Below are positions 1 to 25,298 of a stretch of DNA of 64,000 nucleotides, piece after piece. Position 1 is the first letter of the stretch, and every line of letters starts with the position of its first letter. This stretch comes from Planctomycetota bacterium (GTDB lineage Bacteria > Planctomycetota > PLA2 > JAEUHO01), in the NCBI GenBank assembly GCA_965223505.1, contig CBDCWP010000038.1, positions 1 to 64,000 on the forward strand, written 5' to 3'. The notes below the pieces were generated by a model. That model had not been told where the DNA came from. It ran no database searches and saw only the letters and a list, made by a program, of their open reading frames with translations. The position numbers and the translations under genes were made by a program.

Positions 1-747
1 TCGCCCGCCGCCGCGTGCGGCCGAGTCGTGATCGGGACCGCGCTCGGCATGATCGCCGCCGTCAGTGCGCGCGATGGACGCATCGCGTGGATCTACCGCT
101 ACGACCGCGATGTCGACACGAAGCGCGAAGGGCGCAATCGTCACAAACCGGTGCAGGGCTCGCGCGTGACGGGCTTCACGAACGCGCCCCCGCTGCTGGC
201 ACTGGACCGTTGCTACGTGACACCGACGGACGGCAAGGCCGTGCTGGGGCTGATGGATCGTCCCCGCGGCAAGCACCGCTACATCGAGGGATGGCGACCG
301 AAACCCCGCCTGCTCGGCATGGCGGTCGAGCAGATCGGCGGCCTGGTGATGCCGACCTCCGAGAAGGAGCATCCGGTGCTCGTGCTCGTCGGCCAGGCGC
401 AGGACACCGATGTTCCCGGACCGATCGTCGAGGTCGTCGAGGCGACGACGGGATCGCGTTGGGTCGGCCGCGGCAAGGAGATCGGTTGGTCGGAGGCGAA
501 TCCGACGTCCGGGGCCGACGAACCGTATGGTCGCGTGCTCGTCACCGAGGCCGAGATCTTCGTGCCGACGGACGCGGGCATCGCGGTCTTCGATCTGCGT
601 GCGGGCGACGTGTTGGGCGTGCTGGATCTCGACGACGTCGCCAAGGGTCTGGAGGCGCCACAGCGCCCGTACGGCAACCTGATTCCCATCCCGGGCCACG
701 GGCTCGTGGCCGTGAGCGCGACCACCATCTCGTTCTGGGGGCGGTGA
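1..747 (+). CDS. 3' part of a PQQ-like beta-propeller (BamB-like repeat) protein, open at the window edge
   Basis: Frame is open from base 1 (SPAAACGRVVIGTALGMIAAVSARDGRIAWIY). Propeller-blade motifs AVxxxxGxxxW. Ends in GNLIP...ISFWGR, similar to the GNLLP motif of the 8224 protein. Confidence 0.7.
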   Translation, partial: SPAAACGRVVIGTALGMIAAVSARDGRIAWIYRYDRDVDTKREGRNRHKPVQGSRVTGFTNAPPLLALDRCYVTPTDGKAVLGLMDRPRGKHRYIEGWRPKPRLLGMAVEQIGGLVMPTSEKEHPVLVLVGQAQDTDVPGPIVEVVEATTGSRWVGRGKEIGWSEANPTSGADEPYGRVLVTEAEIFVPTDAGIAVFDLRAGDVLGVLDLDDVAKGLEAPQRPYGNLIPIPGHGLVAVSATTISFWGR

Positions 748-898
748 CCGAGGGACGCGACCAGCCCCCAGGCAAAAGCCCTGTCCAAACCCCTTTCTTT
801 CTCCCCCCGTCCGCTCCCCTTGGCCCGCAAGCGTGGTTCAATGCCTCGCCGTCCGCCGTTTCGGCGCGGATGTCGTATCTCCCCCGGAGGCTTTTCCC

Positions 899-1992
<1,094 letters not shown>

Positions 1993-2002: not shown

Positions 2003-2925
2003 ATGGCCAGGACCCGCGCCACCAGCAAGTACCTCGACCCCGGGTGCTCGCCGAGATCTCCCGAGCTCGACCTGCGCGCACGCCAGGTCGTCGAAGGCTA
2101 CGTCTCGGGCCTGCACAAGAGCCCGCTTTCAAGGGCTACTCCGTCGAGTTCGCCGAGCACCGGGAGTACGTCCCGGGCGACGACATCCGATTCCTGGACT
2201 GGAAGGTCTATGGCAAGACGGATCGCCTCTACATCAAGCACTACGAGGAGGAGACGAACCTCGAGGCGCACCTCGTCGTCGACGCGAGCGAGTCGATGTC
2301 GTACGACAGCCGGGACGGGGACGGCCCGAGCAAGTTCGACTACGCGAGCTGGGCCGCCGCGGGTCTCGCGTATCTGATCACGCAGCAGCAGGACGCCGCC
2401 GGGCTGGTGCTGTTCGACGAGCAGGTGCGGCTGAAGCTGCCGGCGCAGAGCAGCCAGGGGCACCTGCGCAACATCATCACCGAGCTGGACAAGGCCGAAC
2501 CGATCGCCGGCACCGGGATCGGACGCGCGCTGGCCGAGGCCGGCGAGGCGATTCGCCGCCGCGGTTTGGTCGTCCTGTTCTCGGACCTGCTCGACGACCC
2601 GAAGCAGATCCTGCGGGGTCTGCGACAGGTGCGCCAGCGCGGCCACGAGGTGTTGCTCTTCCACGTACTCGCGCACGACGAGCTGACGTTCCCCTTCCAG
2701 CGTCTCACGCGATTCGAGGGCATGGAGCTGATGCCCAACGTCACCGCGGACCCGGTCGCGCTTCGAACCGCGTACCAGGCCGAGGTGCAGGCGTTCCGGC
2801 GTCGGCTGCGCCGGGTGTGCCTCGCAAACCGCATCGACCTCGTCGAGATGGACACGTCGCAGTCGCTCGGCATCGTGCTGGCCGCCTACCTCGCGAAGCG
2901 CGCGGCGCGAAGGAAGGCGAAGTGA
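2003..2925 (+). CDS. DUF58 protein of MoxR/vWA operons (frameshifts in the first ~130 nt)
   Basis: LDLRARQVVEGYVSGLHKSP, FKGYSVEFAEHREYVPGDDIRFLDWK, DASESM, SDLL. The N-terminal motifs alternate between the ORFs starting at 2003 and 2044. Confidence 0.9.
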
Positions 2926-5381
2926 ACGTGTCACCGCTCCTCTCGCCGCTCGCCCTGCTGACGACCAGCGCGCTCCTCTGGGGCGGCGTCGCGCTCGCGT
3001 CGATTCCCATCATCATCCACTTGCTGAGTCGCCGTCGCGTCCGCAAGGTTCGTTGGGCGGCGATGCAGTGGCTGCTCAACGCGATGAAGCGCCACCAGCG
3101 CCGGCTGCGGCTCGAGAATTGGCTCATCCTCGCGATGCGCGTGGCCGCGATCATCCTGCTCGGGCTCGCACTGGCGCGACCGATTCTCACGGACTCGCCG
3201 CTGGCCGGCTTGCTCGAGAACAAACGCAGCGTGTACCTCGTGCTCGACAACTCGTACAGCACCGACGCGAAGATGGACGCCCGCTCGGTCTTCGAAGCGG
3301 TGAAGAACGAGGCCGAGCTCGTCTTCCGCACGATGAGCCGCGAAGACACGGTCTGCGTGATCCTCACGAACGACCCCGACGAAGAGGTCACGGCGGGCGT
3401 GCAGCCGCACGTGCTCGTCCCGCGCACGGTCGGCACCGAGGGCGTGGACCGGGCGAAGAAGGCGGTGGCGACGCTGCAACCGCGTCACGCGAGCGCCAGC
3501 TGGCCGGCGACGCTCGAGTCGGTGCAGAACCAGATGGCGCCGGAGGACGTGAACCGGCTCGTCGTCATCGTCACGGACTTGCAGGCGCAGAACTGGCTGC
3601 GACCCGAGCGAGAGACGCTCGCGGACGACGCCGCGGCGGAAGGCGAGGCCGCGCCGGAGGGACTCGATCGCATCCGCGAGCACATGATCGCCATCCTGCG
3701 CCGCCCGAGCCAGATGCAGATCATCGACGTCGCGCGCGGAGAGCGCCGCAATCTCGGCATCCGGGAGATCGAGAACCGCACGCCGAGCGGCGCGTTCGTC
3801 GGGCGTCCGCTGAACCTGGTGGTCAGCGTCGCCAACTACGGCGCCGCGGAGGTGAACGACGCGCAGCTCGAGGTCTACGTCGACGGCCGGCCGACACCGC
3901 AGCGCTTCGCGGTCCCGACGTTGCCCGCCGCCGACGTCGGCATGCGCATTCCGAAACCGGGCGTCGAGCAGGTGCAGGTCGATCTCGGCCGCAACACGTT
4001 CGAGTCGCCCGGATCGCACGAGATTCGCTGCAAGGTGGTTCCGCCGCGGTCGGACCCCGGCGCCGACGCGCTCGGACTCGACAGCGAGCGCTGGTTAGCG
4101 GTGAACGTACGCCCGCGGATCGAGATCGTCGCGTGGACGCGCCGCAGCCGCGACGCGAAGATGAGCGAGCTGATGTACTTGCAAGGGCTGTACGAGGGCG
4201 ACACGTCCGGCAACGGATCCGGTACCGTCGGCCCGGCGTCGCTCTACGGCTTCCGGCACGTCACGCAGGAGTCGGACCTGGTGCGCGCGATGAGCAACCG
4301 CCATCGCGAGACCGTCGACCTCGTCGTGCTGGCGAACGTGACGCCGCGTGATCCGAACATGGTCCGGATGCTGCGCGAGTTCGTTCGCGAAGGCGGCGGA
4401 CTCCTCGTGTTCACGGGCGACAATCACCGCACGCCCGAACCCTTCAACGACGCGTTCTACGGCGACGCGCCGGAAGACCGCCTGGTGCCGTACCCGATCC
4501 GCGCCGCGCAGGTGCGCGACCCGGCCAAGCAGGAGCAGCACTTCGAACTCGACTACGGCGAGCAGGAGGATCCCCACCCGCTCGCCCAGCCGTTCGTGGC
4601 CGGTGACGAATGGACGAAGACGTACCGTCCGCAGATCTGGGGCCGTACACCCTTCGTGGTTCCCGAGCCCGAGTCGGGCGGAACCGACGACGAGGAACCC
4701 GAGGAAGCAGAGGGCGTGGTGCTGCGCTACACGGACGGCGAGGCGGCGATCGTCACGTCGAAGGTCGGCTACGGGCGCACCGTGTGGATCAGCACGAGCC
4801 TGGACTACGGCTGGATGTACAAGGCGCTCTTCCCCTTCCTGCCGATCTTCCTCGAAGAGTCCGCGCTCTATCTCACGAAGCCCGATGACACGGGCCAGAA
4901 CCTGGGCATCGGCGACCCCCTGCGCGCGACGTTGCCGATGGGCGCGCAGGAGCCGCGGCTCTCGATCCCCGGCGGCACCCAGCGTGCCGTCTCGACGACC
5001 GGCGACGAAGGACCCGAAGGCGGGCGCGCGTCCATCGAGTGGCCGCAGGTCGGCACCGTCGGCATCTGGAAGCTCACCTACGACGTGCAAGATCCCACGG
5101 GCGAGGTGCGCAAGATCGAGCACCACTACGCGGTCAACCCCGAACCGATCGAGGGCGCGCTCCTTCCCGCGACGACCAGCGCGTTGCGCGAGGGCATCCC
5201 CGCCGAGCTGGGGCTCACGTTCCCGCAGACGTACGGCGACACCGGCAAGGAGATCGTCGAGGCGCGCGAGGGCGAGGTGACGCGCTACGTGTTGTGGATC
5301 CTGCTCGCGCTGCTCCTGCTGGAGTCGTTCCTGGCGATGCGCTTCGGCCGCCGTTCAACAAGCACCCCCGAGGCTTCGTAA
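2922..5381 (+). CDS. BatA N-terminal domain + vWA domain membrane protein
   Basis: IPIIIHLL...WAAMQWL...LARP BatA signature, LVLDNSYS MIDAS-like motif, VTDLQ, GGGLLVF segment, C-terminal TM helix (LLLLES). GTG start overlaps the DUF58 stop. Confidence 0.85.
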   Translation: MNVSPLLSPLALLTTSALLWGGVALASIPIIIHLLSRRRVRKVRWAAMQWLLNAMKRHQRRLRLENWLILAMRVAAIILLGLALARPILTDSPLAGLLENKRSVYLVLDNSYSTDAKMDARSVFEAVKNEAELVFRTMSREDTVCVILTNDPDEEVTAGVQPHVLVPRTVGTEGVDRAKKAVATLQPRHASASWPATLESVQNQMAPEDVNRLVVIVTDLQAQNWLRPERETLADDAAAEGEAAPEGLDRIREHMIAILRRPSQMQIIDVARGERRNLGIREIENRTPSGAFVGRPLNLVVSVANYGAAEVNDAQLEVYVDGRPTPQRFAVPTLPAADVGMRIPKPGVEQVQVDLGRNTFESPGSHEIRCKVVPPRSDPGADALGLDSERWLAVNVRPRIEIVAWTRRSRDAKMSELMYLQGLYEGDTSGNGSGTVGPASLYGFRHVTQESDLVRAMSNRHRETVDLVVLANVTPRDPNMVRMLREFVREGGGLLVFTGDNHRTPEPFNDAFYGDAPEDRLVPYPIRAAQVRDPAKQEQHFELDYGEQEDPHPLAQPFVAGDEWTKTYRPQIWGRTPFVVPEPESGGTDDEEPEEAEGVVLRYTDGEAAIVTSKVGYGRTVWISTSLDYGWMYKALFPFLPIFLEESALYLTKPDDTGQNLGIGDPLRATLPMGAQEPRLSIPGGTQRAVSTTGDEGPEGGRASIEWPQVGTVGIWKLTYDVQDPTGEVRKIEHHYAVNPEPIEGALLPATTSALREGIPAELGLTFPQTYGDTGKEIVEAREGEVTRYVLWILLALLLLESFLAMRFGRRSTSTPEAS

Positions 5382-5383
5382 GC

Positions 5384-8101
5384 ATGAACATGCTCGCTTC
5401 CTCTCTGACTCTCGCTGCCGACCGAATCGACGTCGGTCCGTGGAAGTGGGCCAACCTGCCGCCGGCATGGCTGCTGGTCGTCCTGGTCATCGCGGGCTTC
5501 TTCTGGGTTCGGTCGGTCTACGTGCGCGAGCGCGGTCGCTCCGGCCGCATGCCGCGCTTTCTGCTGGCGGGCATCCGCACGCTCGTCCTGCTGCTGGTGG
5601 TGCTCATCTTGTCCGGCCCGTTCCGGGAAGAGACCCATACGGCGCTCGAGCAGTCGCACCTCGTCGTGCTGATCGACAGCAGCGCGAGCATGCGCACGAA
5701 GGATCGCTACGAGCGCGCCGAGCAGGAGCGGCTGCTGAACGCGGCCTACCCGGTGGGCGCGCGGCCGTCCTCCACCGAAGAGGTCTCGCGCGGTGAGCTC
5801 GTGCGACGCATCCTCGCGCCCGACGGCGAACGCATGCTGCGCGAGTGGAACGATCGCTTCGTCCTGCACTTCTTCGCGTTCGACGGGGACTGGCGCTCCC
5901 TCGGTTCGCTCGCCCGCGATCGAACGGGCGACGGGGACGAGAAGACGGCCAAGGCCGGCCGCGCGCGCGAGCTCGGCGAAGCGGTTCGCGATCTGCCGAT
6001 GGACGGGGGACGCACGCGCATCGGCGCGGTCATCCGCAACGTCGCCAACGAGTTCGGCCGGCGTCACGATCGTCATCTCGCGGGGGTCATCCTGATCAGC
6101 GACGGCCGCGACACCAGTGAGGGCGAGACGCCTCAGCAGGTGCTCGCGTCACTGGGCTCGATCGCCGAAGACCTGCGGATCCAGCCGGTGATCGTCGGCA
6201 ACCCGAGCAGCGGCAAGAACCTGTGGGTCGAGAAGATCCTCGCGAAGGACTTCGTGCTCGTCGGCGACGAGGTGCTTTTCGAAGTCGTGTTGCGTCAGAG
6301 CGGCTTCGGCGCCCTGCGAGGGGTCGAAGCCGTGATGACCGCCGAGCGCATCGCCGACAAGGAAGGCAACACGCTCGCGAAACCGGTGAAGTACGAGTTC
6401 CCGTCTCGGGCGTCGAACCCGCGCACCCGCACGCGCGAGTCCAACATCGCGATGCCGGACGAAGACACGCCGGTCGAGGTGCGTCTGCGCGCGCCCTTCA
6501 ACAAGGCCGGCACGTACCGCGTCAAGATCCGCGCGAAGCTCCCGAGTGACCGCTCCAAGGAAGACGCGGTGCCGGAAGACGACGAGCGCACGCACGAGAT
6601 CGTGGTGAAGGACCAGCGCATTCGCGTCCTCTACGTCGACGACGAGCCGCGCTGGGACTGGCGTTTCCTGTCGACCTATCTGACGCGCGAGCCGCCGCCG
6701 GACGCGCTGAACCCCGACCGCCGCAGCCGCTTCGCCGTCAACGTGCTGTTGCAGGGCGCCGATCCGCAGTTCAAGCAACCGACGAGCAACGATCCCCGGC
6801 TGCGGCCGCTGCGGCAGTTCCCGCGGACGCGCCGCGAGCTGTTCGAGTACGACGTGATCATCCTGGGCGACGTCAACTGGCGGACGTTCAATCCACTCTC
6901 GCCGCAGGAGAACAAGAAGACGCTTGAGCTGCTCGTCGAGTTCGTCGAGGAAGGCGGCGGCATCGCGTTCCAGGCGGGCGACGACTACCGCAACCCGATC
7001 GAGTACCTGGCGACGCCGCTCGCCCAGCTGCTACCCGTTGCCGCGCTCGAGAGCGACCGGCGCGAGTCGGAGAAGCCGAGCTTCGTCGACCCGTTTCACA
7101 TCGAGCTGACCAACGAGGGCAAGCGGCACCCGATCTTCTCGATCGTGCCGGGACTGGACGACCGCGCGATCGCGACGCCCGAGGACATCGCCAAGACGTG
7201 GCGCGGCGACACGCCGCTCTCGCGCGACTGGAACTGGTACTGGCTCTACCGGGCGAAGGCCGGTCTGCGCCCGGGCGCGATCGATCTGGCCCGGGTGCGC
7301 GCGGCGCGCGGCGACCGCGACATGATGGACGATCGCGGTCAGCCGTTGGTCGTGTTCGCCGCGATGCCGTTCGGCAAGGGGCACGTCTTCTGGTCGTCGC
7401 TGGACTCGATCTCGCGGATCCGTCGCGAGAACCGCGACCAGTACTTCGGTCCGTTCTGGGAACAGGTGATTCGCTACCTGGCGACGTACCGGCTTCTGGG
7501 CGGCAACAAGCGCTTCAAGATCTTCACCGACAAGGAGGAGTACTTCGTCGGCGACACCGCGACCGTGGACATCACGGCGTTGGACGAATACTACGAGCCG
7601 CTCGCGGACCCGTTCCTGGACGGCGTGCAGATCGAGGTGCCCGGCGGTGAGACCATCGAGCTGACCGAGGGGCGCCGGCCGCGCAGCCGGCGGCAGGAGG
7701 GCGCACCGGGCTCGTATCGGATGTACCTCCCGCTGCGCAAACAGGGGCAGTACCGGTTGTGGATCGAGGAGACCGCGCGGGCGCCCGGTGCGCGCGCGAG
7801 TCGCGAGCGGGCGGAGCGGCGGATCACGGTGAACTTCCGCGCGAAGGAAGACATCCTGAAGGTCCCGGATCTCGAGACGATGCGCGACATCGCGCGCGAG
7901 GCGAATCCGGTAGCGCGCAAGGCGGACGCGATCAAGCTGTACGAGCTGGAAGACTTCGTGGCGAAGACGCAGGATCGTCCCCGCGAGCGGGTGCTCGATC
8001 GCGAAGAGCGAACCCAGTGGGACAAATGGTGGGTCTTGCTGCTGATCACGGCGTTGCTGGCGCTCGAGTGGGCCCTGCGCAAGTGGTGGCAGATGATCTA
8101 G
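5384..8101 (+). CDS. vWA domain / glutamine-amidotransferase-like domain membrane protein
   Basis: Two N-terminal TM helices, LIDSSASM, LISDGR, YDVIILGD, FVEEGGG, C-terminal LLALEWALRK typical of Bat-cluster proteins. Confidence 0.8.
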   Translation: MNMLASSLTLAADRIDVGPWKWANLPPAWLLVVLVIAGFFWVRSVYVRERGRSGRMPRFLLAGIRTLVLLLVVLILSGPFREETHTALEQSHLVVLIDSSASMRTKDRYERAEQERLLNAAYPVGARPSSTEEVSRGELVRRILAPDGERMLREWNDRFVLHFFAFDGDWRSLGSLARDRTGDGDEKTAKAGRARELGEAVRDLPMDGGRTRIGAVIRNVANEFGRRHDRHLAGVILISDGRDTSEGETPQQVLASLGSIAEDLRIQPVIVGNPSSGKNLWVEKILAKDFVLVGDEVLFEVVLRQSGFGALRGVEAVMTAERIADKEGNTLAKPVKYEFPSRASNPRTRTRESNIAMPDEDTPVEVRLRAPFNKAGTYRVKIRAKLPSDRSKEDAVPEDDERTHEIVVKDQRIRVLYVDDEPRWDWRFLSTYLTREPPPDALNPDRRSRFAVNVLLQGADPQFKQPTSNDPRLRPLRQFPRTRRELFEYDVIILGDVNWRTFNPLSPQENKKTLELLVEFVEEGGGIAFQAGDDYRNPIEYLATPLAQLLPVAALESDRRESEKPSFVDPFHIELTNEGKRHPIFSIVPGLDDRAIATPEDIAKTWRGDTPLSRDWNWYWLYRAKAGLRPGAIDLARVRAARGDRDMMDDRGQPLVVFAAMPFGKGHVFWSSLDSISRIRRENRDQYFGPFWEQVIRYLATYRLLGGNKRFKIFTDKEEYFVGDTATVDITALDEYYEPLADPFLDGVQIEVPGGETIELTEGRRPRSRRQEGAPGSYRMYLPLRKQGQYRLWIEETARAPGARASRERAERRITVNFRAKEDILKVPDLETMRDIAREANPVARKADAIKLYELEDFVAKTQDRPRERVLDREERTQWDKWWVLLLITALLALEWALRKWWQMI

Positions 8102-12747: not shown

Positions 12748-12802
12748 CCGTCGGGAACGGAATCTGAACAGCCTGCCCGCTCCTCGTCCGTTCCTTCGCC
12801 GT

Positions 12803-12827
12803 TGTCCTGCCCCCTCCGGTACCCTGG
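12803..12827 (+). promoter_or_regulatory. Conserved upstream motif, probable promoter of a (near-)leaderless mRNA
   Basis: TGTCCTGCCCCCTCCGGTACCCTGG. TACCCT lies 6 nt before ATG 12832 and there is no SD. Confidence 0.5.
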
Positions 12828-12831
12828 ATTC

Positions 12832-14031
12832 ATGACGCGACGCATTCTCCTTTGCCTGCCACCGTTGCTCGCACTGCTCGCCGTGGGGCTCGCCCTGCAG
12901 CCGCAACCGAGCGACGCGGACGACGGCGCGCGGGCGCAGCCGCTGGTCGACGCGCGCGCCCACACCGCGATCGAGCGCGGCACCCGCTATCTGATGCGCC
13001 TCCAGAACCCGGACGGCTCGTGGCCGAGCAACGCGGGCAAGAAGATCAACGAGCGGTACGACGTGTTCCTCAACGGCACGCGCGTCTCGCACGTCGGCGT
13101 GACCTCGCTCTCCGTGCTTGCGCTGCTCGCCGGCGGCCACAAACCCGGCCGCGGCCCGCACGGCCAGGCGCTGGAGAGGGCGATCGCGTTCATCATGTCG
13201 CGGGTGCAGCCGAGCGGGTACATCGCCGCGAACGGCACGCGGATGTACAGCCACGCGTTCGCGACGCTCGCGCTGGCCGAGGTGTACGGCGTCTCGCGCA
13301 AAGCCGAGATCCGCAACAAGCTGCAAGACGCGATCGAGTTCACCGTCAAGTGCCAGAACCAGACGGGCGGGTGGCGCTACGTTCCGTTCACGAACGACTC
13401 GGACATGAGCGTCACGGTCTGCCAGGTCGTCGCGCTGCGCGCGGCGCGCAACGTGGGAATCAAGGTGCCCCGCGCGACGGTCGACCGCGCTCTGAGGTAC
13501 ATCATCGAGAGCGCGATCTCGGAAGGCGAACGCGGTCCCGCGGGCGCGTTCTGGTATCAGCCGCACGACCAGCGGTTCAACCGCCCGTCGTTTGCGCTCT
13601 GCGCAGCCGGTCTGACCGCGATGTTCCAGGCCGGCCTGTACGACGACCGTCAGGTCCGGCGCCACATTCGCGCGAACAAGATCGACAAGCCGAACCCGCC
13701 GACGATTCGCCAGTCCGTCGAGTACATGAAGAACCAGTACTGGCGCATCTGGCACCGCTCACCGAATCCGGATCACTACTTCTACTTTTACGGCAACTAC
13801 TACGCGGCGCAGGCGATGTATCAAATCGGCGGTCGCGATCCCGCCGCGTGGGAAGGTTGGTACCGGCAGGTGCGAGATCATCTGTTGGAGCGTGCGCAGT
13901 CCAACTCGCACGGCGGCAAGAAAGAGGTCTATTGGCGCAGCAACGTGGATGACACGAATGCGTACGCCACGGCCTGCGCGCTGCTGATCCTGCAGTTCCC
14001 GTTGGACTATCTGCCCATCCACCAACGCTAA
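12832..14031 (+). CDS. Prenyltransferase/squalene oxidase repeat (alpha/alpha-toroid) protein, exported
   Basis: QNPDGSW, QNQTGGWRY, MYSHAFATLALAE, SDMSVT, YYAAQAM, C-terminal YLPIHQR. Signal peptide. Confidence 0.85.
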   Translation: MTRRILLCLPPLLALLAVGLALQPQPSDADDGARAQPLVDARAHTAIERGTRYLMRLQNPDGSWPSNAGKKINERYDVFLNGTRVSHVGVTSLSVLALLAGGHKPGRGPHGQALERAIAFIMSRVQPSGYIAANGTRMYSHAFATLALAEVYGVSRKAEIRNKLQDAIEFTVKCQNQTGGWRYVPFTNDSDMSVTVCQVVALRAARNVGIKVPRATVDRALRYIIESAISEGERGPAGAFWYQPHDQRFNRPSFALCAAGLTAMFQAGLYDDRQVRRHIRANKIDKPNPPTIRQSVEYMKNQYWRIWHRSPNPDHYFYFYGNYYAAQAMYQIGGRDPAAWEGWYRQVRDHLLERAQSNSHGGKKEVYWRSNVDDTNAYATACALLILQFPLDYLPIHQR

Positions 14032-15977: not shown

Positions 15978-18467
15978 ATGCCTGAGTTCAAGAGTCCCGG
16001 AGACCGCTCCGTTCGCGAGATCGTCCAGCGGCTGCGCTCCCTGCGCGCCCGCATCCGCGGGATCTTCGCGGTCGTCGGCATCGCCCGGCTGGGCGTGGTG
16101 GTGCTGGGCACACTGGGCCTGTTCTTCCTCGCCGACTGGTTGCTCGATCTGCCGATGGGCGTGCGCCGGTTCGTGCGCCTGGGTCTGCTGGACCATCCGA
16201 GCTGGCTCGCGACGCTGCCCTGGCTGTTGTGCCTGGGGCTGTGCGCGTTCTTCGCCTACGTGTTCACCCGCACGCACCGCGGCGTCGCGGGGCTGTTCGC
16301 GTTCCTCACGGCGGGCATCGTCGGCGTCTGGGTGTGGTACGCGGTGCGTGTCTTCGCGCCGCTGCGCGTCCGGCTGTCCGACGAGGACATGGCGATGACG
16401 GTGGAGGAGCGCTACAAGCACCTCAACGACCGGCTTGCCGCGTCGCTCGACTTCGAGCGGGAGCTGCGCGCGCCGAGTCGCGGCGAGAGCCCGGCGATGA
16501 TGCGCAAGGTCGTCCAGGACGCGGTCGAGGCCGCCGAAGGGCTGTCGATGCACGACGCGGCGTCGGGCAAGCGCGCTGCGGCGTGGACGGGCGTGGTCGT
16601 CGGCGTGGCGTGCGTGGCGCTGATCGTCGTCGCGCTGATGCCGGCGACGATCGGCCTGTGGTGGGAGCGCTCGATCCTCGTCCAGAACACGCCGTGGCCG
16701 CGTGACACCAACATGTACGCGGTCGCGATCGACAGCGCGGGCGAGGTCTCGCGCTGGAATCCCGCACAGCCCTACTCCGTCGCGCTGGGCCGGCCCCTCA
16801 CGATCCACGCGCAGGCCGATGGCGAGGTGCCGGACGAGGCGTTCCTCGTGGACCTCATCGACGGCCAGCAGCCGCTGGCCCGGCGCATGTTCGCCGTCCC
16901 GGACATGGAAGGCGTGTTCGCCTTCGAGTTCCGCGACGTGCGGCGTCCCTTCTCCTTCGTCTTGCGGGGCGGCGACGACGAGGACGAAGAGCCGCTCTAT
17001 CGGGTCGAGATCACGATTCCGCCGCACGTGTTGAGCATCGAATCGACGGTCACCTATCCCGCGTATCTGGGCGGGACGTCGGAGACGTTCGCGCATGGCA
17101 ACGTCACGGTGCCGGAAGGCTCGACGGTCGCGGTCGCGTTCACGACCAGCATGGACGTCGCGACGGCCCAGCTGGTGATCGCCGACGACGTGCGGCCGGT
17201 CCAGTCGAGCGACCCGCGTTCGTTCTCGTTCACGTTCGAGGCCGACGCGACCCTCACCTACCGCCTCGCGCTCGAAACGCCCGATGGCAAGGTCAACGAT
17301 CCGGCCGCCGACACGTACGAGGTGCGCGTCCGGCGCGACCAGGCGCCCAGCGTCGAGTGGATCTTTCCCCGCCAGACCCTCGAGGTGACCGCGGAAGGCC
17401 GCTTGCCGCTGCTGGTGCGCACACGCGACGACCACGCCGTCACCCAGCTCGCGCTCGAGGCGCGAATCGGCAGCGACGAGATCGTCCGCTTCCCCGTCAT
17501 CGAGTTCGGGACCACCGATCCCGATCGCGAGAACGCCGTGGCGGCCGCGGACGGACCGTTCGGGCGCACCCAGGTGCTGACGTACGTCCCGCTCGAGATC
17601 AAGGACCTCGAGAGTCCCACCGGAGAGCCGCTCGTTCCGCCGGCGCGGCTGGCGTTCCGCATGGTCGCGAACGACTCGCGCGGGCAATCGCGCGAAGGCG
17701 AGTGGACGTACGTCGACGTGTTCGGCCCGGCGGAGCTCGAACGCGGACTATCGGGCCGCCGCGCGAACGCGCGCGCCGAGGTGGACCGGGTCTACGCGGA
17801 ACAGAAGGTCCGTCGTGACGAGCTCGAGGAGATCATGAGCGGCCCCGTCGGTCCGGCCGAGCTCAGCCTGCTCAAGGAGATCCGTTTCTCACAGGGCAAG
17901 CTGGCGCAGGATGCGGACCGCGCGACGCGTGGACTGATCGAGATCTTCAACAGCTTCATCTACAACCGCCTCGGGACGCGCAAGCCGACCGACGAGATCC
18001 TCTTCATGCTCGATCGGCACCATCGCGCGACGTACGGCGTGCTGCCCGCGGGCGACGCGGCGTCGTTGCCGCCGGACGAGGTCGAGTCGGCGCGGGCCTG
18101 GCAGGGTGATCCCGCTTTCCCCTATGCGCTCTACGAAGAGATCATCGCGATGCGCAAGGAGAAGGTGGACAAGGGGCTGATCACGCGCCTCGTCGCCGTC
18201 ATCGACGACGCCGTGCGCGTCGGCGGCTACCTGGCGCCGGAAGCGCACCGTGCCGCGACACGCGCCGTGTCCGGCACCAGGGAAGACATGCAGGCGGCGT
18301 TGGACGCGCAGGACGCTCACCTCGCCGCACTGGACCGGCTGCTCGACTCGATGCGGCGCTGGAAGAGCTTGAGCGATGTGACGGCGTTCCTACGCCGCCT
18401 CATCCAGGAACAGAAGACGCTGAGCGACTCGATCGAAGGCGATCCGGACGACCCCGGCGACAAGTGA
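15978..18467 (+). CDS. Membrane protein of Bat-like clusters (DUF4175-like)
   Basis: N-terminal TM helices, LNDRLAASLDF, PWPR, YPAYLG, VPEGS, DQAPSV, DDHAV, coiled-coil C terminus. Confidence 0.7.
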   Translation: MPEFKSPGDRSVREIVQRLRSLRARIRGIFAVVGIARLGVVVLGTLGLFFLADWLLDLPMGVRRFVRLGLLDHPSWLATLPWLLCLGLCAFFAYVFTRTHRGVAGLFAFLTAGIVGVWVWYAVRVFAPLRVRLSDEDMAMTVEERYKHLNDRLAASLDFERELRAPSRGESPAMMRKVVQDAVEAAEGLSMHDAASGKRAAAWTGVVVGVACVALIVVALMPATIGLWWERSILVQNTPWPRDTNMYAVAIDSAGEVSRWNPAQPYSVALGRPLTIHAQADGEVPDEAFLVDLIDGQQPLARRMFAVPDMEGVFAFEFRDVRRPFSFVLRGGDDEDEEPLYRVEITIPPHVLSIESTVTYPAYLGGTSETFAHGNVTVPEGSTVAVAFTTSMDVATAQLVIADDVRPVQSSDPRSFSFTFEADATLTYRLALETPDGKVNDPAADTYEVRVRRDQAPSVEWIFPRQTLEVTAEGRLPLLVRTRDDHAVTQLALEARIGSDEIVRFPVIEFGTTDPDRENAVAAADGPFGRTQVLTYVPLEIKDLESPTGEPLVPPARLAFRMVANDSRGQSREGEWTYVDVFGPAELERGLSGRRANARAEVDRVYAEQKVRRDELEEIMSGPVGPAELSLLKEIRFSQGKLAQDADRATRGLIEIFNSFIYNRLGTRKPTDEILFMLDRHHRATYGVLPAGDAASLPPDEVESARAWQGDPAFPYALYEEIIAMRKEKVDKGLITRLVAVIDDAVRVGGYLAPEAHRAATRAVSGTREDMQAALDAQDAHLAALDRLLDSMRRWKSLSDVTAFLRRLIQEQKTLSDSIEGDPDDPGDK

Positions 18468-18495
18468 CCCGACGTCCATGACGGTTAGGACCCCC

Positions 18496-21400
18496 ATGTC
18501 CCAGAACCCCTCCCCCACATCCGACTCCCCCTTCGGCAAGGCGAACCTGCGTTGGATCGTTCGCGGCCTGACGCTGATGCTCGTCATGGGCGTCCTGCTG
18601 CACGCCGGCGCGCCGTCGGCGCGCGCAGACGACGATCTCGAACAGGATCGCGCGAAGCGCAACGCGGCCAAGCAGGAAGAGATCAAGAGCAAGGTCACCG
18701 AGCTGCGCTCCGACATGGAGAACCTCGCAGAGGAGCTCAAGCGGGGGAACCAGGACTACGAAGAGCAGCTCGTGCGCGGTGCGCTCAAGCACCTCGACGC
18801 GGCGGATCTCTCGAAGAGCATCGAGGCGGTGGTGAGTGCCCTGAAACAGGCGCGACCGCAGAACGAACGCGCTCTGGATGCGTCGACGCAGGTGCTCGAC
18901 ACGCTGCAGCAGCTCCTGGACATCCTCGAGGACCGCAACCGCGAGTTCAGCAAGAAGGAGATCGAGGACCGCATCGAGAAGGCCAAGCGCGCGCAGGAGG
19001 AGGCCCGGCGTCTCAAGGAAGACGAGCAGAAGATCGTCGACGAGCTCAACAAGCTCGAGGAGATGGACAAGTCGAAGGCGGCGCGAGACGCCGAGCAGAT
19101 CAAGGCCGAGATCGACGAGCTTCGCAAGGACCAGGCCGACGTCCAGGAGCGCATGACGCCGGAGAAGCTCGACGAGCTCAACCGGCGCAAGGCGGCGATC
19201 GAGAACCTGCTCGAGCGCCAGAAGGACGCGCTGGATCGCACGAACGCGGCGAAGGAAGCGCGGGACAAGCAAGGCGCCAGCGAGGCGCGTGAGGCCGCGG
19301 ATCGCGCCGCGAAGGAAGCGCGCGACCTCGCCGCCCGCGAACGCAAGGCGCAGATGGAAAGCACGCGCGCGGAGCTGATGGACAAGTCGGCGCGCATGGC
19401 GCGCATCCTCGAGCAGTCGGCGGCCCGTCATCGCGACGGCGCGCGTGCGCGAGAGAACGCCGAAGACGCCAAGGCGGCGGCGGAAGCCGCGAAGGCCGCC
19501 GCCGAGGCCGCGAAGGCGGCGGGCGAAGGCAGCACGGACGAAGCGCTCGCGAAAAAGCTCGCGCAGGAGGCGGCCGCCGCGGCGCAGGCGCTCGCGGAGA
19601 AGATGCGTGCGGACCGGGAGCAGGCGTACGGCGATTCGAAGGAATCGAAGAGCGACGGATCGAAGTCCGACGACGGTTCGGAGTCCGGTGGCACCGAGAG
19701 CGACGGGTCGAAGTCCGATGGCTCGAAGTCCGACGGGTCCACGTCCGATGGTTCGAAGAGTGACGGGTCGAAGTCGAACGGGTCCAAGAGCGACGGGTCG
19801 AAATCGGACGGGTCGTCGTCGGGGACGCCTTCGTCGTCACACCCGCAGGCGCGTGACCTGGAGAAGGCGCTCGAGCAGATGGCCGCCGCGGCCAAGAAGC
19901 TCGCGAACGCGTCCGGCGCGGAGGCGAAGGCCGCCGGCGATGCGCTGCAGAAGGCGGCGAGCGCTGCCGCCGAGGCGGCGAATGCCGCGAACGCGAGCAG
20001 GTCGTCCGACGCCGACAAGGCGAGCGCGATCGCGAGCGAGAGCGAACAGCTGGCCGACACGCTCGAGACGGCGGCCAAGTCCGGCGCGCTGTCGTCGGGC
20101 AACGCTGCGAAGCCCGAGACGGCGGCGTCGAAGGCGGCCGAGGAGGCTGCGAAGGCGTTGCGCGATGCGGCGGACGCGATTCGCGCGGCCCGCGAGAAGG
20201 AAGCAGCCGGCGACAGCGGCGCCGCAGGTGACCGCTCCGAGCAAGCGCGCGCGTCGTTGGGCGAAGCCGCCGAGGCCCTCGAGCGGGCTGCGGGCGGCTC
20301 GCAGAGCGAAGGCTCCCCGAGCAGCGAGAGCCGGCCGAGCGGAGCGGAGGGCGGCGAGAGCGCGTCCGAGCGAGCCGCCGCGGAGGGCGAGCGCGCGAAG
20401 GAAGCCAACGCATTGGCCGAAGCGATCAACGCGTTGGGCGAAGAGCTGGCCAAGGCCGCGAGCGATCCGAGCGGCGCCGGCTCTCCCGAAGGCGCCCCGT
20501 CGGCGGAGGAGGCCAAGCAGGCGGCGAAGGAAGCCGCCGCGGCCGCGGCCGCCATGGCGGAGGCACGGGAGGCCATCGCGGGTGGTGAAAGCGGGCGCGC
20601 GGGCGCTGCGCAGGCGGAGGCGGCCGATCGCCTCGAGCGCGCGGCAGATCAGCTGTCCGGCGGAGGCACCAATACCGGTGGCGAGCTTGCGGACGGGCAG
20701 GCGGACATCCGCAGCGGTGCCGAGCAGCTCGCCGGCGAGATGGGCGCCGAAGGCAGCGCGTCCGAAGGCTCCGAGGGCAGCACGTCCGAAGGCTCCGAGG
20801 GCAGCACGTCCGAAGGCTCCGAGGGCAGCACGTCCGAGGGTTCCGAGGGCAGCACGTCCGAGGGCTCCGAAGGAAGCACGTCCGAGGGCTCCGAAGGCAG
20901 CACGTCCGAGGGCTCCGAGGGCAGCAAGTCCGAAGGCTCGCAGGCCGAGGCCGGCCAGAAGATGCAGGAAGCGACCTCCGCGATGAAGAACGCGGAAGAG
21001 GCGCTCGATCAGGGCGATCTCGAAGCGGGCGCGGAAGCGCAGAAGGAAGCCGTCGAGGCGCTCGACGAGGCGAGGGCGGCGCTCGACGAGGACATCCGCA
21101 ATCTGCTCGAAGAGCAGGGCCGCACGCAGGAGGAGATCGAGAAGGCGCAGCGCGAGCTCGCCGAGCGAGCCGAAGAGCTGAAGAACGCCACCGACGAGCT
21201 CGACCCCTCGACGCCCGAGGGGCAGGACGCAGCCGCGGCCGCTGCGCAGGCCATGAAGGAAGCCCAGCAGGCGATGCAGAAGGCGGGGCAGCAGGCGTCC
21301 CAGGGCGACCAGGCCGGCGCGCAGCAGTCGCAGCAGCAGGCGCAGCAAGCGATGCAGCAAGCGCAGGAACAGCTCGGGAAGCTCGGCGAGGAGTCCGCCG

Positions 21401-22335
21401 GCAACCAGGACGTCGAGGAGCGACTGAGGGAGCTGCAGGATCAGCAGGCGGCGATTCGCGAGCAGATGAAGGAGCTACAGGACCTCGTCGACGAGACCGA
21501 GTCGCCCGAGGCGAGCCAGAGCGCGCAGGGTGCGAAGGAGTCGATGCAGGAGGCCGAGCAGCAGATGCAGGGCGGCTCCCCGCCCAAGGCCAAGGAAAAC
21601 GCCGAGGATGCGCGCGACTACCTGGAGCAGCTCGAGGACCAGCTCGACGAAGAGCGGCGCCGCTACGAGTCGCTGCAGCAGGAGGAGCTGCTGTATCAGC
21701 TCGTCCGCGACCTGAAGGAGTACCGCGAGCGCGAGATCGAGATCCGCAAGACGACGATCGAGCTGACGGAAGCTTCGAAAGCGGGTCGTCTCAGCCGCGT
21801 CGAGAAGACGAAGAGCCGCAGGCTCGCGAACGAGCAGTCCGAGCTCAAGGCACTGATCGACGAGCGGCTCGCGGCCATCAAGGAAGAGGGTTCGACCGCG
21901 TTCGCTCTCGTGCTCGAGGAGGTCAGCCTCGACATGCACGAGGTGGCGAACATGCTTCGTACCGTCGATCTGGGTCCCCTCGTCGTGGGGCTCGAAGGGG
22001 AGATCATCCACCGCTTCGACAGCCTCATCGGCGGATTCGAGGACGAGATCGAACGCCGCCAGGAAGAGGAACAGGACGGCGGCGGTGGCGATCAGCAGCA
22101 GGGCGGCCAAGGCAAGCCGCCGCTCGTGCCGCCGATCGTGGAGATCAAGCTCTTGAAGCGAATGCAGGACGACCTGAACCTCAAGGCCAAGTCGTTCCTG
22201 GATCGCCATCCCAACATTCGCGAAGGCGACGACATCACCGACGCGCAACGGCGTCAGCTCGAGCGACTCTCCCACCAGCAGGGTCGGTTGAAGAAGGTGC
22301 TGGACGACATCATGAAGGCCGTGTTCGGCGGATAG
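18496..22335 (+). CDS. Large exported coiled-coil protein with low-complexity repeats
   Basis: Signal peptide, A/E/Q-rich heptads, SDGSK and SEGSEGST repeats, C-terminal PLVPPIVEIKLLKRMQ. Alternative start at 18478. Confidence 0.75.
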   Translation: MSQNPSPTSDSPFGKANLRWIVRGLTLMLVMGVLLHAGAPSARADDDLEQDRAKRNAAKQEEIKSKVTELRSDMENLAEELKRGNQDYEEQLVRGALKHLDAADLSKSIEAVVSALKQARPQNERALDASTQVLDTLQQLLDILEDRNREFSKKEIEDRIEKAKRAQEEARRLKEDEQKIVDELNKLEEMDKSKAARDAEQIKAEIDELRKDQADVQERMTPEKLDELNRRKAAIENLLERQKDALDRTNAAKEARDKQGASEAREAADRAAKEARDLAARERKAQMESTRAELMDKSARMARILEQSAARHRDGARARENAEDAKAAAEAAKAAAEAAKAAGEGSTDEALAKKLAQEAAAAAQALAEKMRADREQAYGDSKESKSDGSKSDDGSESGGTESDGSKSDGSKSDGSTSDGSKSDGSKSNGSKSDGSKSDGSSSGTPSSSHPQARDLEKALEQMAAAAKKLANASGAEAKAAGDALQKAASAAAEAANAANASRSSDADKASAIASESEQLADTLETAAKSGALSSGNAAKPETAASKAAEEAAKALRDAADAIRAAREKEAAGDSGAAGDRSEQARASLGEAAEALERAAGGSQSEGSPSSESRPSGAEGGESASERAAAEGERAKEANALAEAINALGEELAKAASDPSGAGSPEGAPSAEEAKQAAKEAAAAAAAMAEAREAIAGGESGRAGAAQAEAADRLERAADQLSGGGTNTGGELADGQADIRSGAEQLAGEMGAEGSASEGSEGSTSEGSEGSTSEGSEGSTSEGSEGSTSEGSEGSTSEGSEGSTSEGSEGSKSEGSQAEAGQKMQEATSAMKNAEEALDQGDLEAGAEAQKEAVEALDEARAALDEDIRNLLEEQGRTQEEIEKAQRELAERAEELKNATDELDPSTPEGQDAAAAAAQAMKEAQQAMQKAGQQASQGDQAGAQQSQQQAQQAMQQAQEQLGKLGEESAGNQDVEERLRELQDQQAAIREQMKELQDLVDETESPEASQSAQGAKESMQEAEQQMQGGSPPKAKENAEDARDYLEQLEDQLDEERRRYESLQQEELLYQLVRDLKEYREREIEIRKTTIELTEASKAGRLSRVEKTKSRRLANEQSELKALIDERLAAIKEEGSTAFALVLEEVSLDMHEVANMLRTVDLGPLVVGLEGEIIHRFDSLIGGFEDEIERRQEEEQDGGGGDQQQGGQGKPPLVPPIVEIKLLKRMQDDLNLKAKSFLDRHPNIREGDDITDAQRRQLERLSHQQGRLKKVLDDIMKAVFGG
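19651..19815 (+). repeat. Intragenic 15-nt tandem repeat (SDGSK)n
   Basis: About 9-10 degenerate SDGS[KT] units. Confidence 0.85.
20748..20940 (+). repeat. Intragenic 24-nt tandem repeat (SEGSEGST)n
   Basis: About 7-8 near-identical tccgaRggctccgagggcagcacg units. Confidence 0.9.
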
Positions 22336-22343
22336 GAGATCCC

Positions 22344-23132
22344 ATGCACGACGCGAAGCCCACCCGCCGGATCCGTTCCTCGATCCTCGCATTGGCGGCC
22401 TCGGTCGCGCTGTGCGCCGTACCGGCGACGCTGAGCGCCGAGGAAGAAGGACCGGGCGCGGTCGAGAAGAAGATCAAGGAGCAGATGGAGAAGATCCTGA
22501 AGCTCATGAAGGAGAACGAGGACGCGCTGCTGAAGCTCAGCACGGGCAAGTCGGCCGACCCCAAGGGGGTGGACATCGAGCCGCCGGTGCCGCCGGAGGG
22601 GTCGCCGCCTCCGTCGTCGGGCGGCTCCGGCTCGTCCGGTTCGGGTGCGTCCGGCGGCGGCGCGGGTGGGTCCAAGGGCGACGACATCCGGCGCAAGCTC
22701 GAGGAGCTGCTGGAGCAGCAGCGCGGCAGCAGCCGGATCCCCGGCGAGCTCGAGGCGCTGGTGCGCATGATCCCGACGAAGAAGGGGCAAGGAGAGGGTC
22801 AGGGCGAGCCGCAGGACCAGAGCGGCAAGGAGCCCAACGAGGCCGAGATGCGCGACAACCGCCAAGAGGAGCAGGATCCGAAGGAGAACGGGGGGCAGGA
22901 CCCGCAGGACCCCAAGGGCCCGCGTGACCCCAACGACCCGATGTCGAATCGCAAGCCCGAGCCCGATGCGCCCGAGAATCCGCAGGATCCGAAGTCGGGT
23001 TCGTTCTGGGACACGCAGCTCCCGGCCGAGATCCGCGAGGCCGCTGCAGGTGGGAAGCTCAAGATGATTCCGGTGCAGTACCGGGATCTCGTGCGCCGCT
23101 ACCTGCTCTGGCTCCAGAAGAACGCCAAGTAA
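22344..23132 (+). CDS. Secreted hypothetical protein, paralogue of the downstream gene (no Sec/Cys at the equivalent site)
   Basis: SD GGAG, signal peptide, QMEKILKLMKENEDAL, LVRMIPTKKG, C-terminal YLLWLQKNAK. Confidence 0.85.
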   Translation: MHDAKPTRRIRSSILALAASVALCAVPATLSAEEEGPGAVEKKIKEQMEKILKLMKENEDALLKLSTGKSADPKGVDIEPPVPPEGSPPPSSGGSGSSGSGASGGGAGGSKGDDIRRKLEELLEQQRGSSRIPGELEALVRMIPTKKGQGEGQGEPQDQSGKEPNEAEMRDNRQEEQDPKENGGQDPQDPKGPRDPNDPMSNRKPEPDAPENPQDPKSGSFWDTQLPAEIREAAAGGKLKMIPVQYRDLVRRYLLWLQKNAK

Positions 23133-23231
23133 ACGCGGTCCTTGGCCCCGGAAGGGCCAGGGCCACGACGATGGACTCGCTGCGCAGGCTCTGCGGCATG
23201 CGATACTGACCGGACTGACGAGGAGACCGAC

Positions 23232-23984
23232 ATGACGCTTCGTAGCTGCTTGACCAGCCTGATCGTGCTGGCCGCCCTGATCTGCGTCGCTCCCGCGGCA
23301 TTCGCCGAGGACGAGCCCCAGGGCAACGACATCCGCGCCAAGATCAAGGCGCAGATGGAGAAGATCCTGAAGCTGATGAAGGAGAACGAAGACGCTCTCA
23401 TCCAGCTCAGTGCCGGGAGCTCGGCGACGACCCGGAAGGTCGATGTGAAGGTCGACTCGCCCGACGGCGAGTCCGGCACCAGCGCCGGCTCGAAGGAAGA
23501 TCCTTCGTCGAAGGGCGAAGCGGTCGGCAAGAAGCTCGATGAGCTGTTGAAGGCGCACGCCGGCAGCGGCTCGATTCCGCCCGAGCTCGAAGAGCTCGTG
23601 CGCATGATCCCGACCTGAGACAGCTGCGGCGGCCAGTTTGGCGCGCCCAAGGACAAGCCGAGTCAGAGCCAGGGTCAGCAGAACCAGGCCGATCCGCGCG
23701 ACGGTCGGCAGAAGGACGAGGAACTTCGCAAGCAGGGCGAGCAGAACGAGCCGAAGAGCGGCGAGAAGTCGCCGAACGACCCGGCCGAGAAGCCCTACAC
23801 CGCAAAGAAGGAAGATCCGGTCGATCCCAAGGACGCCGAAGCCGCCAAGTGGCAGGGCTGGGCCGCGCAACTTCCGCCGGAAGTGCGCGATGCGATCGAC
23901 GGCGGCAAGCTCGAGCGCATCCCGCTCAAGTACCGCGAGACGGTTCGCAAGTACCTGCTCTGGCTGCAGAAGAACGCGAAGTAG
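23232..23984 (+). CDS. Secreted protein with in-frame TGA (codon 129) in a U-D-S-C motif, candidate selenoprotein, 250 aa
   Basis: SD GAGGAG and signal peptide. The frame stays open for 121 codons after TGA 23616-23618 and ends in the same YLLWLQKNAK as the paralogue. Confidence 0.8.
23628..23647 (+). promoter_or_regulatory. Candidate bacterial SECIS hairpin
   Basis: GGCGGCCA-GUU-UGGC(G)CGCC: 8-bp stem with one bulge, loop starting with GU 17 nt after UGA. Confidence 0.6.
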
Positions 23985-24146
23985 GGTCCCCGACGCCGAC
24001 CGTATCGAAGCCGCGACCACGCTGTGACCTGCGTACAACGATCGCCCCGGTGTGACGTTTCAATTCCTCCGAGGCCGGCCCCCTCGCCGGGTCGAACGCC
24101 GGAATCCGGGCTAGGATGAGCCTGCGAACGCCCGGTGGGAGCGAAC

Positions 24147-25298
24147 ATGCACCACAACGTCCAGCGACCGACGGTCCGCCGGATCGCCGTCCTTCTGGTG
24201 ATGTCGACGCTGGTGGTCTGCCTGGGCGGCAAGATCGACCTGCGCGACGCGCAAGCGCGCGACGAGGTGCGCCGCGGCGTGCCCGAGAACCCCATGCAGA
24301 GGCGCAATCGCCGCAGGGCGATCAAGCGCGGCTGCGACTTCCTCGCTTCGAAGCAGCGCACCGACGGCGGCTGGGGTGAGAACCGGGTCGTCGTCGCGTT
24401 GACGTCCCTGACGGTGCTCGCGCTGATGTCGAACGGGTCGACGGACGGCCGCGGCCCCCACGGGAAGCAGGTGCGCAAGGGCATCGACTTCCTGCTTCGC
24501 ATCGTGGAAGGGAAGGAAAAGCGCAAGAAGCGGTGGCACGAGGGCTACTTCGACTACCCCCAGGACAACACCTCGCGGATGCACGGCCAGGGCTACGCGA
24601 CGCTCGCGCTGGCCACGGCGCTCGGCACCTCGAGCAGCGAGCGCTACAACCGCATCAAGAGTGTCCTGAAGAAGGCGGTTGCGTGCATCGAGTACGCACA
24701 GACCACCACCGGCGGCTTCGGATACAAGCCGATGCCCAGCGCGGACCACGAGGGGAGCGTGACCGTGGCGGTCGCGCAGGGCCTGCGCGCGGCACGCGAC
24801 GCGGGCATCCTGATCAACAGCCAGGTGGTCCGAAAGGGGCTCCATTACTTGAAGCGCAGCCAGAAGCGAGACGGCTCGTTCAAGTACAGCACGCATCAAG
24901 ACCAATCGACGTACGCCCTGACGGCGGCGGCGTTGTCGTCTTTCTATCTCTACGGCGAGTACTCCGAGAAGGAGGTCATCGCCAAGGGCATCAGCTACAT
25001 GAAGACGCGGCTGCGCAGCCGCGGCCCGGATCTGAATTGGTACTACTACGGGCATTTCTATGCGGCGTGGACCGCGTGGCAGCACGACGGGCACACGTGG
25101 GAGAAGCGCGGGACCGAGAACTTCTGGGCCTTTTGGCAGGACGTGGTCTACACCGATCTCCTCGAGCAGAAGCAGCGGGAGGACGGTTCGTTCTATCAGG
25201 ACAACGGCCGTTACAACTTCGGCCCGGTTCTGAGCACGGCGTTCGCGGTGTTGACGTTGGCCATCCCGGACGAGGTCGTGCCGATCTTCCAGCGGTAG
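24147..25298 (+). CDS. Prenyltransferase/squalene oxidase repeat protein (second paralogue)
   Basis: QRTDGGW, MHGQGYATLALA, QTTTGGFGY, QKRDGSF, YYYGHFYAA, C-terminal VPIFQR. Confidence 0.85.
   Translation: MHHNVQRPTVRRIAVLLVMSTLVVCLGGKIDLRDAQARDEVRRGVPENPMQRRNRRRAIKRGCDFLASKQRTDGGWGENRVVVALTSLTVLALMSNGSTDGRGPHGKQVRKGIDFLLRIVEGKEKRKKRWHEGYFDYPQDNTSRMHGQGYATLALATALGTSSSERYNRIKSVLKKAVACIEYAQTTTGGFGYKPMPSADHEGSVTVAVAQGLRAARDAGILINSQVVRKGLHYLKRSQKRDGSFKYSTHQDQSTYALTAAALSSFYLYGEYSEKEVIAKGISYMKTRLRSRGPDLNWYYYGHFYAAWTAWQHDGHTWEKRGTENFWAFWQDVVYTDLLEQKQREDGSFYQDNGRYNFGPVLSTAFAVLTLAIPDEVVPIFQR

Follow-up and report, generated by a model that had tools for sequence, protein, structure and literature searches.

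The DNA analysed here is a stretch of 64,000 nucleotides (the window) from a Planctomycetota bacterium (GenBank assembly GCA_965223505.1, contig CBDCWP010000038.1, positions 1 to 64,000 of the forward strand), and our subject is a gene at 23232-23984 whose reading frame is interrupted by a TGA. This gene very probably encodes one protein of 250 residues, not two fragments, and is a true selenoprotein gene, decoded in the canonical way and absent from current catalogues, in which selenocysteine (Sec) rather than another residue would be inserted at the UGA. In the mechanism that we propose, the UGA at 23616-23618 is decoded as Sec by the genome's own SelB/Sec-tRNA(Sec) system, which would be recruited by a hairpin at 23628-23647 acting as a bacterial selenocysteine insertion sequence (SECIS) within the coding sequence. 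The exported product would consist of three helical segments, followed by a U129-x-x-C132 motif that opens a long, disordered, charged linker, and then by a compact C-terminal helical domain. Its family would be Planctomycetota-wide and always encoded between a protein of about 1285 residues, also exported, and an alpha/alpha-toroid protein, in an expanded MoxR/DUF58/BatA-VWA/DUF4175 envelope cluster.

The proposal of a new selenoprotein goes back to a preliminary description of the window made from its letters, and the features on which that description relied are present in the sequence. The TGA follows ...ELVRMIPT, the same frame then stays open for 121 sense codons up to a TAG at 23982-23984, and the read-through product of 250 residues contains U129-D-S-C132. 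In this DNA, TGA serves as an ordinary stop and not as a general sense codon: of nine open reading frames (ORFs) counted in the window, 4 end in TGA and none has it internally. The preliminary description had also asked whether another letter might be found at 23616-23618 in primary data. Contigs from three public runs show TGA and no other letter; these runs represent two samples from one study, and one of them, which covers the stretch in full, is possibly the source of the window itself, so that the check is not fully independent. Runs with small shares of the stretch, from mangrove and marine sediment, were left out of any statement on habitat; the one that was compared has only short matches from a relative, at 85% likeness or more. 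Past the TGA, no start-type codon occurs in frame for 88 codons, until a GTG at residue 218 within the conserved C-terminal domain.

The in-frame TGA is more than a chance event, since 12 further genomes carry a TGA in this column. When relatives were searched in six frames, homologues turned up in 35 of 61 genomes. The match contains exactly one TGA in 13 of them, all from the window's own taxonomic family (29 genomes in 16 genera), where they span 10 of the 16 genera and encode proteins 34-47% identical to that of the window. The class-level group comprises only 40 species genomes, of which 34 carry the homologous family and 13 the Sec form. In a MAFFT alignment, the TGA of all 13 Sec forms falls in a single column, always with a Cys at +3, within the motif M-[IV]-P-x-U-x-[SG]-C; this conservation is what the preliminary description had suggested looking for. 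The codon of this Cys varies synonymously, being TGT in locus L036 and TGC in the other Sec loci. A 14th Sec form was found on one metagenome contig, the only locus to come from the metagenome scan, and a contig scan for further loci gave 11 matches, all from genomes already counted.

Protein databases hold the family largely in pieces. A profile of the 13 Sec forms, compared with 1.84 billion cluster representatives, gave 400 matches at E<=1e-3 and 173 at E<=1e-10; from this search and a word-indexed protein search (5 matches) we examined 152 database proteins. As many as 65 break off exactly where the Sec column lies (...M-I-P-T, -L or -Q); of the remainder, 60 span the Sec site, 23 comprise a C-terminal fragment and 4 are partial in other ways. 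Gene callers routinely split this gene at the Sec codon. One truncated homologue, P0119, ends ...M-I-P-C, such that Sec would directly follow Cys in a C-U dyad, like the forms of the more distant family f13 described below. Homologues with Cys at the Sec column, which the preliminary description had proposed to seek, are few among the 60: two close ones, P0007 (C-D-S-C) and P0014 (C-S-G-N-C), whose Cys is known from protein sequences and not from DNA codons, and one distant single-Cys protein. The other site-spanning proteins carry Q, S, R, G, K or similar at this column and have no Cys nearby.

The half-length entries invite another explanation, namely that the TGA is a true stop and that the gene is either a pseudogene or a split gene, made of an exported N-terminal protein of 128 residues and a remainder that is untranslated or separately translated. 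Gene callers annotate it in this way (the 65 truncated and 23 C-terminal entries), and TGA is a normal stop in the window genome. However, the sequence past the TGA has the pattern expected of translated DNA. Between L030 and L036, the closest pair of Sec forms, the 125 codons past the TGA differ at 17, 11 and 46 first, second and third positions, with 32 synonymous and 28 non-synonymous codon changes, and the region evolves as coding sequence. Because of this third-position excess, the absence of a start for 88 codons and the presence of full-length Sec-free orthologues in the same syntenic slot, we take the downstream part to be translated. Furthermore, a separate downstream product would have no signal peptide, 14 independent sequences, across 10 genera, share the TGA column, and an invariant U-x-x-C lies directly at the codon. 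We consider a true stop extremely unlikely.

Beyond the class of the window, the family with a TGA in its linker is found, as judged from sequence matches, in well-separated lineages. An even sample of 401 Planctomycetota genomes contained a match to the homologous family in 99 at E<=1e-6. Outside the window's class, 10 matches contain a TGA and nine were confirmed; the tenth, in genome G160, was left out since its stretch gave no profile match. The nine (loci among L124-L133, in genomes G279, G202, G264, G167, G111, G240, G403, G339 and G366) belong to three other Planctomycetota families, f13, f6 and f35, and in all nine the TGA lies in a Gly/Ser-rich linker and is followed by a hairpin. The local motifs differ: I-P-C-U-N-G-S and L-P-P-U-G-G-G in f13, G-G-T-U-S-G in f6, and G-T-U-[SEKD] in f35, with C-x-G-G-C or C-P-S-C further on. 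In f35, the TGA sits at another point of the linker, 5' of the middle helix. A TGA-free relative of f35, L128 (G072:C2:157500-159000), carries D-C-G-D-C and S-C-E-S-C in the same linker and perhaps represents a Cys version of the Sec forms in f35.

Decoding of the UGA as Sec calls for a dedicated machinery, whose absence from the genome the preliminary description had named as fatal to its proposal. The window genome (44 contigs, 92% complete) has the complete set. Its tRNA-Sec scores 69.2 bits and is called SeC, anticodon tca, by ARAGORN, and selA (507 bits), selB (336 bits) and selD (338 bits) all pass curated cut-offs. The selD gene adjoins selA (G000:C8:36851-39232; loci L009 and L018) and is in turn a selenoprotein gene: a single TGA interrupts its frame within G-A-G-G-U-A-A-K, and a stem of 7 bp with a loop of 8 nt comes next. 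In the window's taxonomic family, selB was found in 28 of 29 genomes and selA in 27; all 10 distant genomes with TGA-bearing matches that were checked have selB. Sec decoding is widespread in Planctomycetota: in the phylum sample, 285 of 401 genomes have selB at E<=1e-60, and 282 have it above the curated cut-off.

The second element of the proposed mechanism is the hairpin, GGCGGCCA-GUU-UGGC(G)CGCC, which is present as originally described, with a loop that begins 17 nt past the UGA; the TTT codon that had been pointed out in it is indeed uncommon in the window (11 TTT vs 184 TTC in the nine ORFs). A comparable structure is found at each of the 23 TGA loci (14 of the window lineage and 9 distant): a stem of 5-10 bp with at most one bulge, and a loop starting +20 to +28 nt from the U of the UGA. 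The loop is (A)GUU(N) at 15 loci and GGUC, GGGC, GGUCA, CGGGU or GGG at the other 8. Two controls used the same routine with cut-offs of 5 bp or more and -5 kcal/mol and with the same loop window. Such a hairpin is absent from the aligned site of all 19 Sec-free homologues; of 1500 in-frame positions drawn at random from long ORFs in the window, 328 have some hairpin, 1 of them with a GUU-type loop and 9 with a GG-type loop. In the window lineage the AGUUC loop falls in the frame c-AG-UUc (Gln-Phe or Gln-Leu), in the distant lineages in the frame AGU-UCG (Ser-Ser), and it is thus conserved as RNA and not as peptide. On an ungapped codon alignment, RNAalifold gave a consensus of only 3 bp, since the position of the hairpins shifts from one subgroup to another.

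These features resemble those of bacterial genes decoded by SelB and a SECIS, of which we take E. coli fdhF to be the prototype: an in-frame UGA, a hairpin directly 3' of it, a G/U apical loop about 17-25 nt downstream, and selA, selB, selC and selD in the genome. Loop position and the G/U content of the apical loops agree with what we take to be the bacterial SECIS pattern, a hairpin 3' of the UGA with a G in its loop, and three of our loci have GGUC or GGGC tetraloops, presumably like the GGUC loop of fdhF. Unlike in fdhF, the commonest putative SECIS loop here is AGUUC or AGUUG, and the encoded protein is unrelated to formate dehydrogenase.

Alternatively, the UGA could be read through by near-cognate suppression, inserting Trp, Cys or Arg, with the hairpin as a generic stimulator of read-through. 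The argument for selenium insertion is built from sequence evidence, the hairpin is small, and coding sequence rich in G+C readily folds. Yet every TGA-form genome that could be checked comes from a Sec-decoding lineage, U-x-x-C together with a CDSC homologue is the classical Sec/Cys signature, and the position and G/U apical loops of the hairpins fit the pattern that we assume for bacterial SECIS elements. It would be odd, moreover, if a stop codon and its suppression had been kept in 14 sequences while the close full-length homologues did not include any Trp or Arg form, and the forms that do have R, K or Q at the site also lack the Cys. Such suppression is, in our view, very unlikely.

How the Sec form relates to the Sec-free forms can be approached through the tandem paralogue immediately upstream. 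At the Sec site it has AAG (K-K-G-Q), three substitutions away from TGA, as the preliminary description had reported. In ten other Sec genomes, the Sec form is the sole copy found on the available stretch, and where both flanks are available this sole copy has the 1285-aa gene on one side and the alpha-toroid gene on the other. The Sec form, usually being the only copy at its locus, would therefore be an orthologue of the Sec-free forms and not merely a paralogue. When the Sec label is mapped on a maximum-likelihood tree of 32 rows, 6 changes are required, at least 4 of them forced by well-supported branches, and the Sec-free loci L047 and L033 nest within Sec clades. Tandem pairs occur in three genomes. 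In two of these (L024 and L026), the Sec-free copy falls together with the Sec copy next to it (supports 99/99 and 90/89), which suggests gene conversion or repeated duplication and then loss of U-x-x-C; the window genome's own two copies have no settled placement on the tree.

What kind of protein would carry this motif? The hydrophobic N-terminus and its A-x-A/acidic junction are kept in all rows of the alignment, from which we infer that the protein is exported. At the other end, W210, L214, P215 and P231 are invariant across 49 sequences. The read-through protein matched nothing in Pfam above the gathering score (best E 0.098) and no family of NCBIfam release 20 at E<=0.01. We modelled it with AlphaFold2 from a 49-row alignment (mean predicted local distance difference test score, pLDDT, 68). 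The model consists of a hydrophobic helix (residues 5-18), helices at 31-60, 91-109 and 117-125, a poorly scored stretch at 126-198 in which the only helices are two very short ones, and, at 199-249, a C-terminal helical domain modelled with confidence (pLDDT 83-95). The U-x-x-C stands at the start of the poorly scored stretch, in which pLDDT falls below 50 for residues 131-142 and 144-155. The Sec thus modelled lies in a predicted disordered linker of a protein that is predicted to be helical and largely disordered. A search of the model against the PDB with Foldseek gave no match at E<=0.001. The preliminary description had called the fold different from that of thioredoxin, and this view stood, in that no thioredoxin-type Pfam or NCBIfam model matched and the predicted structure contains helices only. 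SELENOK and SELENOS are eukaryotic, disordered, membrane-anchored selenoproteins with Sec near the C-terminus and a SECIS in the 3' untranslated region. The protein described here is like them in that Sec is placed in a disordered segment and not in a folded active site; it differs in coming from another domain of life and has no sequence relationship to them.

The U-x-x-C pair might act in at least two ways. First, it could form a selenenylsulfide redox centre on a flexible arm that serves an envelope complex, a role that we favour with somewhat less than even confidence. Second, the Sec/Cys pair could, on the flexible arm, bind soft metals or metalloids such as Cu, Hg, Zn or As and act as a chaperone for cofactor insertion driven by MoxR/VWA, rather than as a redox catalyst. 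MoxR-VWA pairs of other systems are known as chaperones for the insertion of metals or cofactors. In addition, the site is predicted to be disordered and is Gly/Ser-rich, some distant forms have extra CxxC-like pairs beside the Sec (C-S-G-G-C, C-P-S-C), and the TGA-free relative has D-C-G-D-C and S-C-E-S-C. Several of the selenoproteins catalogued in Table 1 of PMC13188914 bind metal; its section 7, however, treats U-x-x-C as most often a redox motif. We recognised no metal-binding domain or transporter in the cluster, and many family members have neither Cys nor Sec. Metal binding on these grounds seems rather unlikely, and we infer that the Sec/Cys centre, carried on a flexible arm outside the cytoplasm as part of an expanded MoxR/Bat envelope system, would more likely be a redox centre.

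Several observations weigh against the assignment of this gene to the selenoproteins. Cys homologues are very few (2 close and 1 distant among 60), and most homologues, the tandem paralogue included, have neither Sec nor Cys at the site; the motif is therefore dispensable for the core role of the family. A Sec site modelled at pLDDT below 50 is unusual for a catalytic Sec. With selB in 285 of 401 sampled genomes, the co-occurrence of selB and TGA discriminates only weakly. The criteria for hairpins were chosen after the data had been seen, although the contrast with the controls is large nonetheless. Relative to synonymous recodings, the folding energy of the whole segment had a mean z of -1.0, and 5 of the 14 loci fell below 0.05; the comparison of Sec loci with Sec-free homologues gave a Mann-Whitney p of 0.26. 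At the G+C content of the window (68.5%), whole-segment folding energies do not discriminate.

In the literature, the family appears to be new, as the preliminary description had supposed. A review of May 2026 (PMC13188914) describes 119 prokaryotic selenoprotein families and subfamilies, each with an InterPro-type model, and none of those that it defines by Pfam or NCBIfam models matches. Its few cd and PTHR models concern folded thioredoxin-like, CopZ, BtuF and Fe-S domains. The selenoproteins with U-x-x-C and a thioredoxin-like fold in its Table 1 (among them Trx, Grx, DsbA-like, Prx-like and SaoT) share the motif, and some are extracytoplasmic. The family described here differs in its all-helical/disordered model and in that its Cys homologues are rare, not abundant. 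A literature search found no description of this selenoprotein family, within a reach that did not extend to candidate table S9 of PMC4807772, which could list a relative; the same search found no selenoprotein reported in MoxR/Bat-type operons. The authors of deep-Sep state that their method may miss selenoproteins without Cys homologues (PMC12013277), and such a blind spot for Cys-poor selenoproteins would fit this family.

Table 1. Features of the selenoprotein gene and its cluster, in window coordinates.
Feature	Coordinates	Strand	Basis or remark
Full selenoprotein gene	23232-23984	+	250 codons and TAG stop; UGA 23616-23618 taken as Sec
Shine-Dalgarno-like GAGGAG	23220-23225	+	6 nt 5' of ATG 23232; sequence only
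Predicted Sec-type signal peptide, residues 1-25 (...APAAFA, then EDE)	23232-23306	+	hydrophobic N-terminus, A-x-A then acidic residues
Putative selenocysteine codon UGA, U129	23616-23618	+	one column shared by 13 genomes and a metagenome contig
TGC, Cys132, partner in U-x-x-C	23625-23627	+	invariant in 13/13 Sec forms
SECIS-like hairpin, 8 bp and one bulged G, apical loop GUU (23636-23638)	23628-23647	+	per-sequence hairpin enumeration
Conserved C-terminal helical domain, residues 199-250 (W...LPPE.RD......IP..YR..V..Y..WL)	23826-23981	+	pLDDT 83-95
Sec-free paralogue in tandem, 262 aa, lacking both Sec and Cys at site	22344-23132	+	43% identity over full length
MoxR-type AAA+ ATPase heading the cluster	820-1863	+	Pfam AAA_3, E 8.8e-64
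DUF58/VWA protein	2044-2925	+	Pfam DUF58, E 1.3e-49
Two VWA membrane proteins, BatA N-terminal type then GATase1-like type	2817-8101	+	Pfam BatA, VWA_2, GATase1_like; coordinates are ORF limits
DUF4175 protein	15978-18467	+	Pfam PF13779, E 1.4e-7
Upstream neighbour, 1285-aa exported protein	18478-22335	+	syntenic; similar signal peptide; no Pfam/NCBIfam match
Downstream neighbour, prenyltransferase/squalene-cyclase-like alpha/alpha-toroid protein	24135-25298	+	Pfam SQHop_cyclase_C, Prenyltrans; syntenic

The gene lies in a setting of MoxR, VWA and prenyltransferase-like genes that had been noted from the start and that is both real and syntenic (Table 1). The co-directional order runs from MoxR (AAA_3) through DUF58, BatA-N/VWA, GATase1-like/VWA, a giant protein with PQQ-propeller and TPR and an alpha/alpha-toroid protein to a FecR-domain protein, DUF4175, the 1285-aa protein, the Sec-free paralogue, the selenoprotein, a second alpha/alpha-toroid protein and a 512-aa protein. 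The contig begins inside a gene upstream of moxR (window 1-747). Of the two alpha/alpha-toroid genes (12802-14031 and 24135-25298), the second is the invariant downstream neighbour. Among 29 loci in relatives, the order 1285-aa gene, selenoprotein-family gene, alpha-toroid gene is kept with both flanks in 24 and with one flank in the other 5, and this synteny includes a sister family that has Sec-free forms only. The signal peptide of the 1285-aa neighbour ends A-R-A and is followed by D-D-D, much as A-R-A is followed by E in the selenoprotein family. We considered whether the family is homologous to its two upstream neighbours; profile comparison found no homology beyond the similar signal peptide.

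The cluster shares with the Bat (Bacteroides aerotolerance)/MoxR operons a MoxR AAA_3 protein, a DUF58 protein, a protein with BatA N-terminal and VWA regions, and further VWA proteins. It differs from them in being expanded by the PQQ-propeller/TPR giant, two alpha/alpha-toroids, the FecR-domain, DUF4175 and 1285-aa proteins, and the selenoprotein family; BatB to BatE were not identified in the cluster of the window.

Taken at its widest, our interpretation is that this is an uncatalogued, phylum-wide family of exported, largely disordered selenoproteins that is integral to an expanded MoxR/Bat envelope machine, with Sec on a Gly/Ser-rich arm (P/G-T-U), a family-specific SECIS of AGUUC type, repeated loss of Sec and Cys forms that are almost absent. 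We hold this picture as a whole to stop just short of probable. If it is right, the family would have been missed by discovery pipelines that look for Sec/Cys pairs, because Cys forms are almost absent.

A selenoprotein in this position would bring a selenium-dependent step, redox or metal-handling, to the long-unexplained 'aerotolerance-type' MoxR/Bat system. Dozens of database entries would be half-proteins that could be mended with a family model. Current selenoprotein finders rely on homologues with Cys, and the bacterial selenoproteome may be under-counted in proteins that are Cys-poor, disordered and exported. Repeated loss of Sec, together with one RNA loop used in two reading frames, would make the family a clean case for the evolution of SECIS elements within coding sequence. 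Finally, a Sec/Cys centre on a flexible arm would offer an experimental handle on MoxR/Bat-type envelope clusters.

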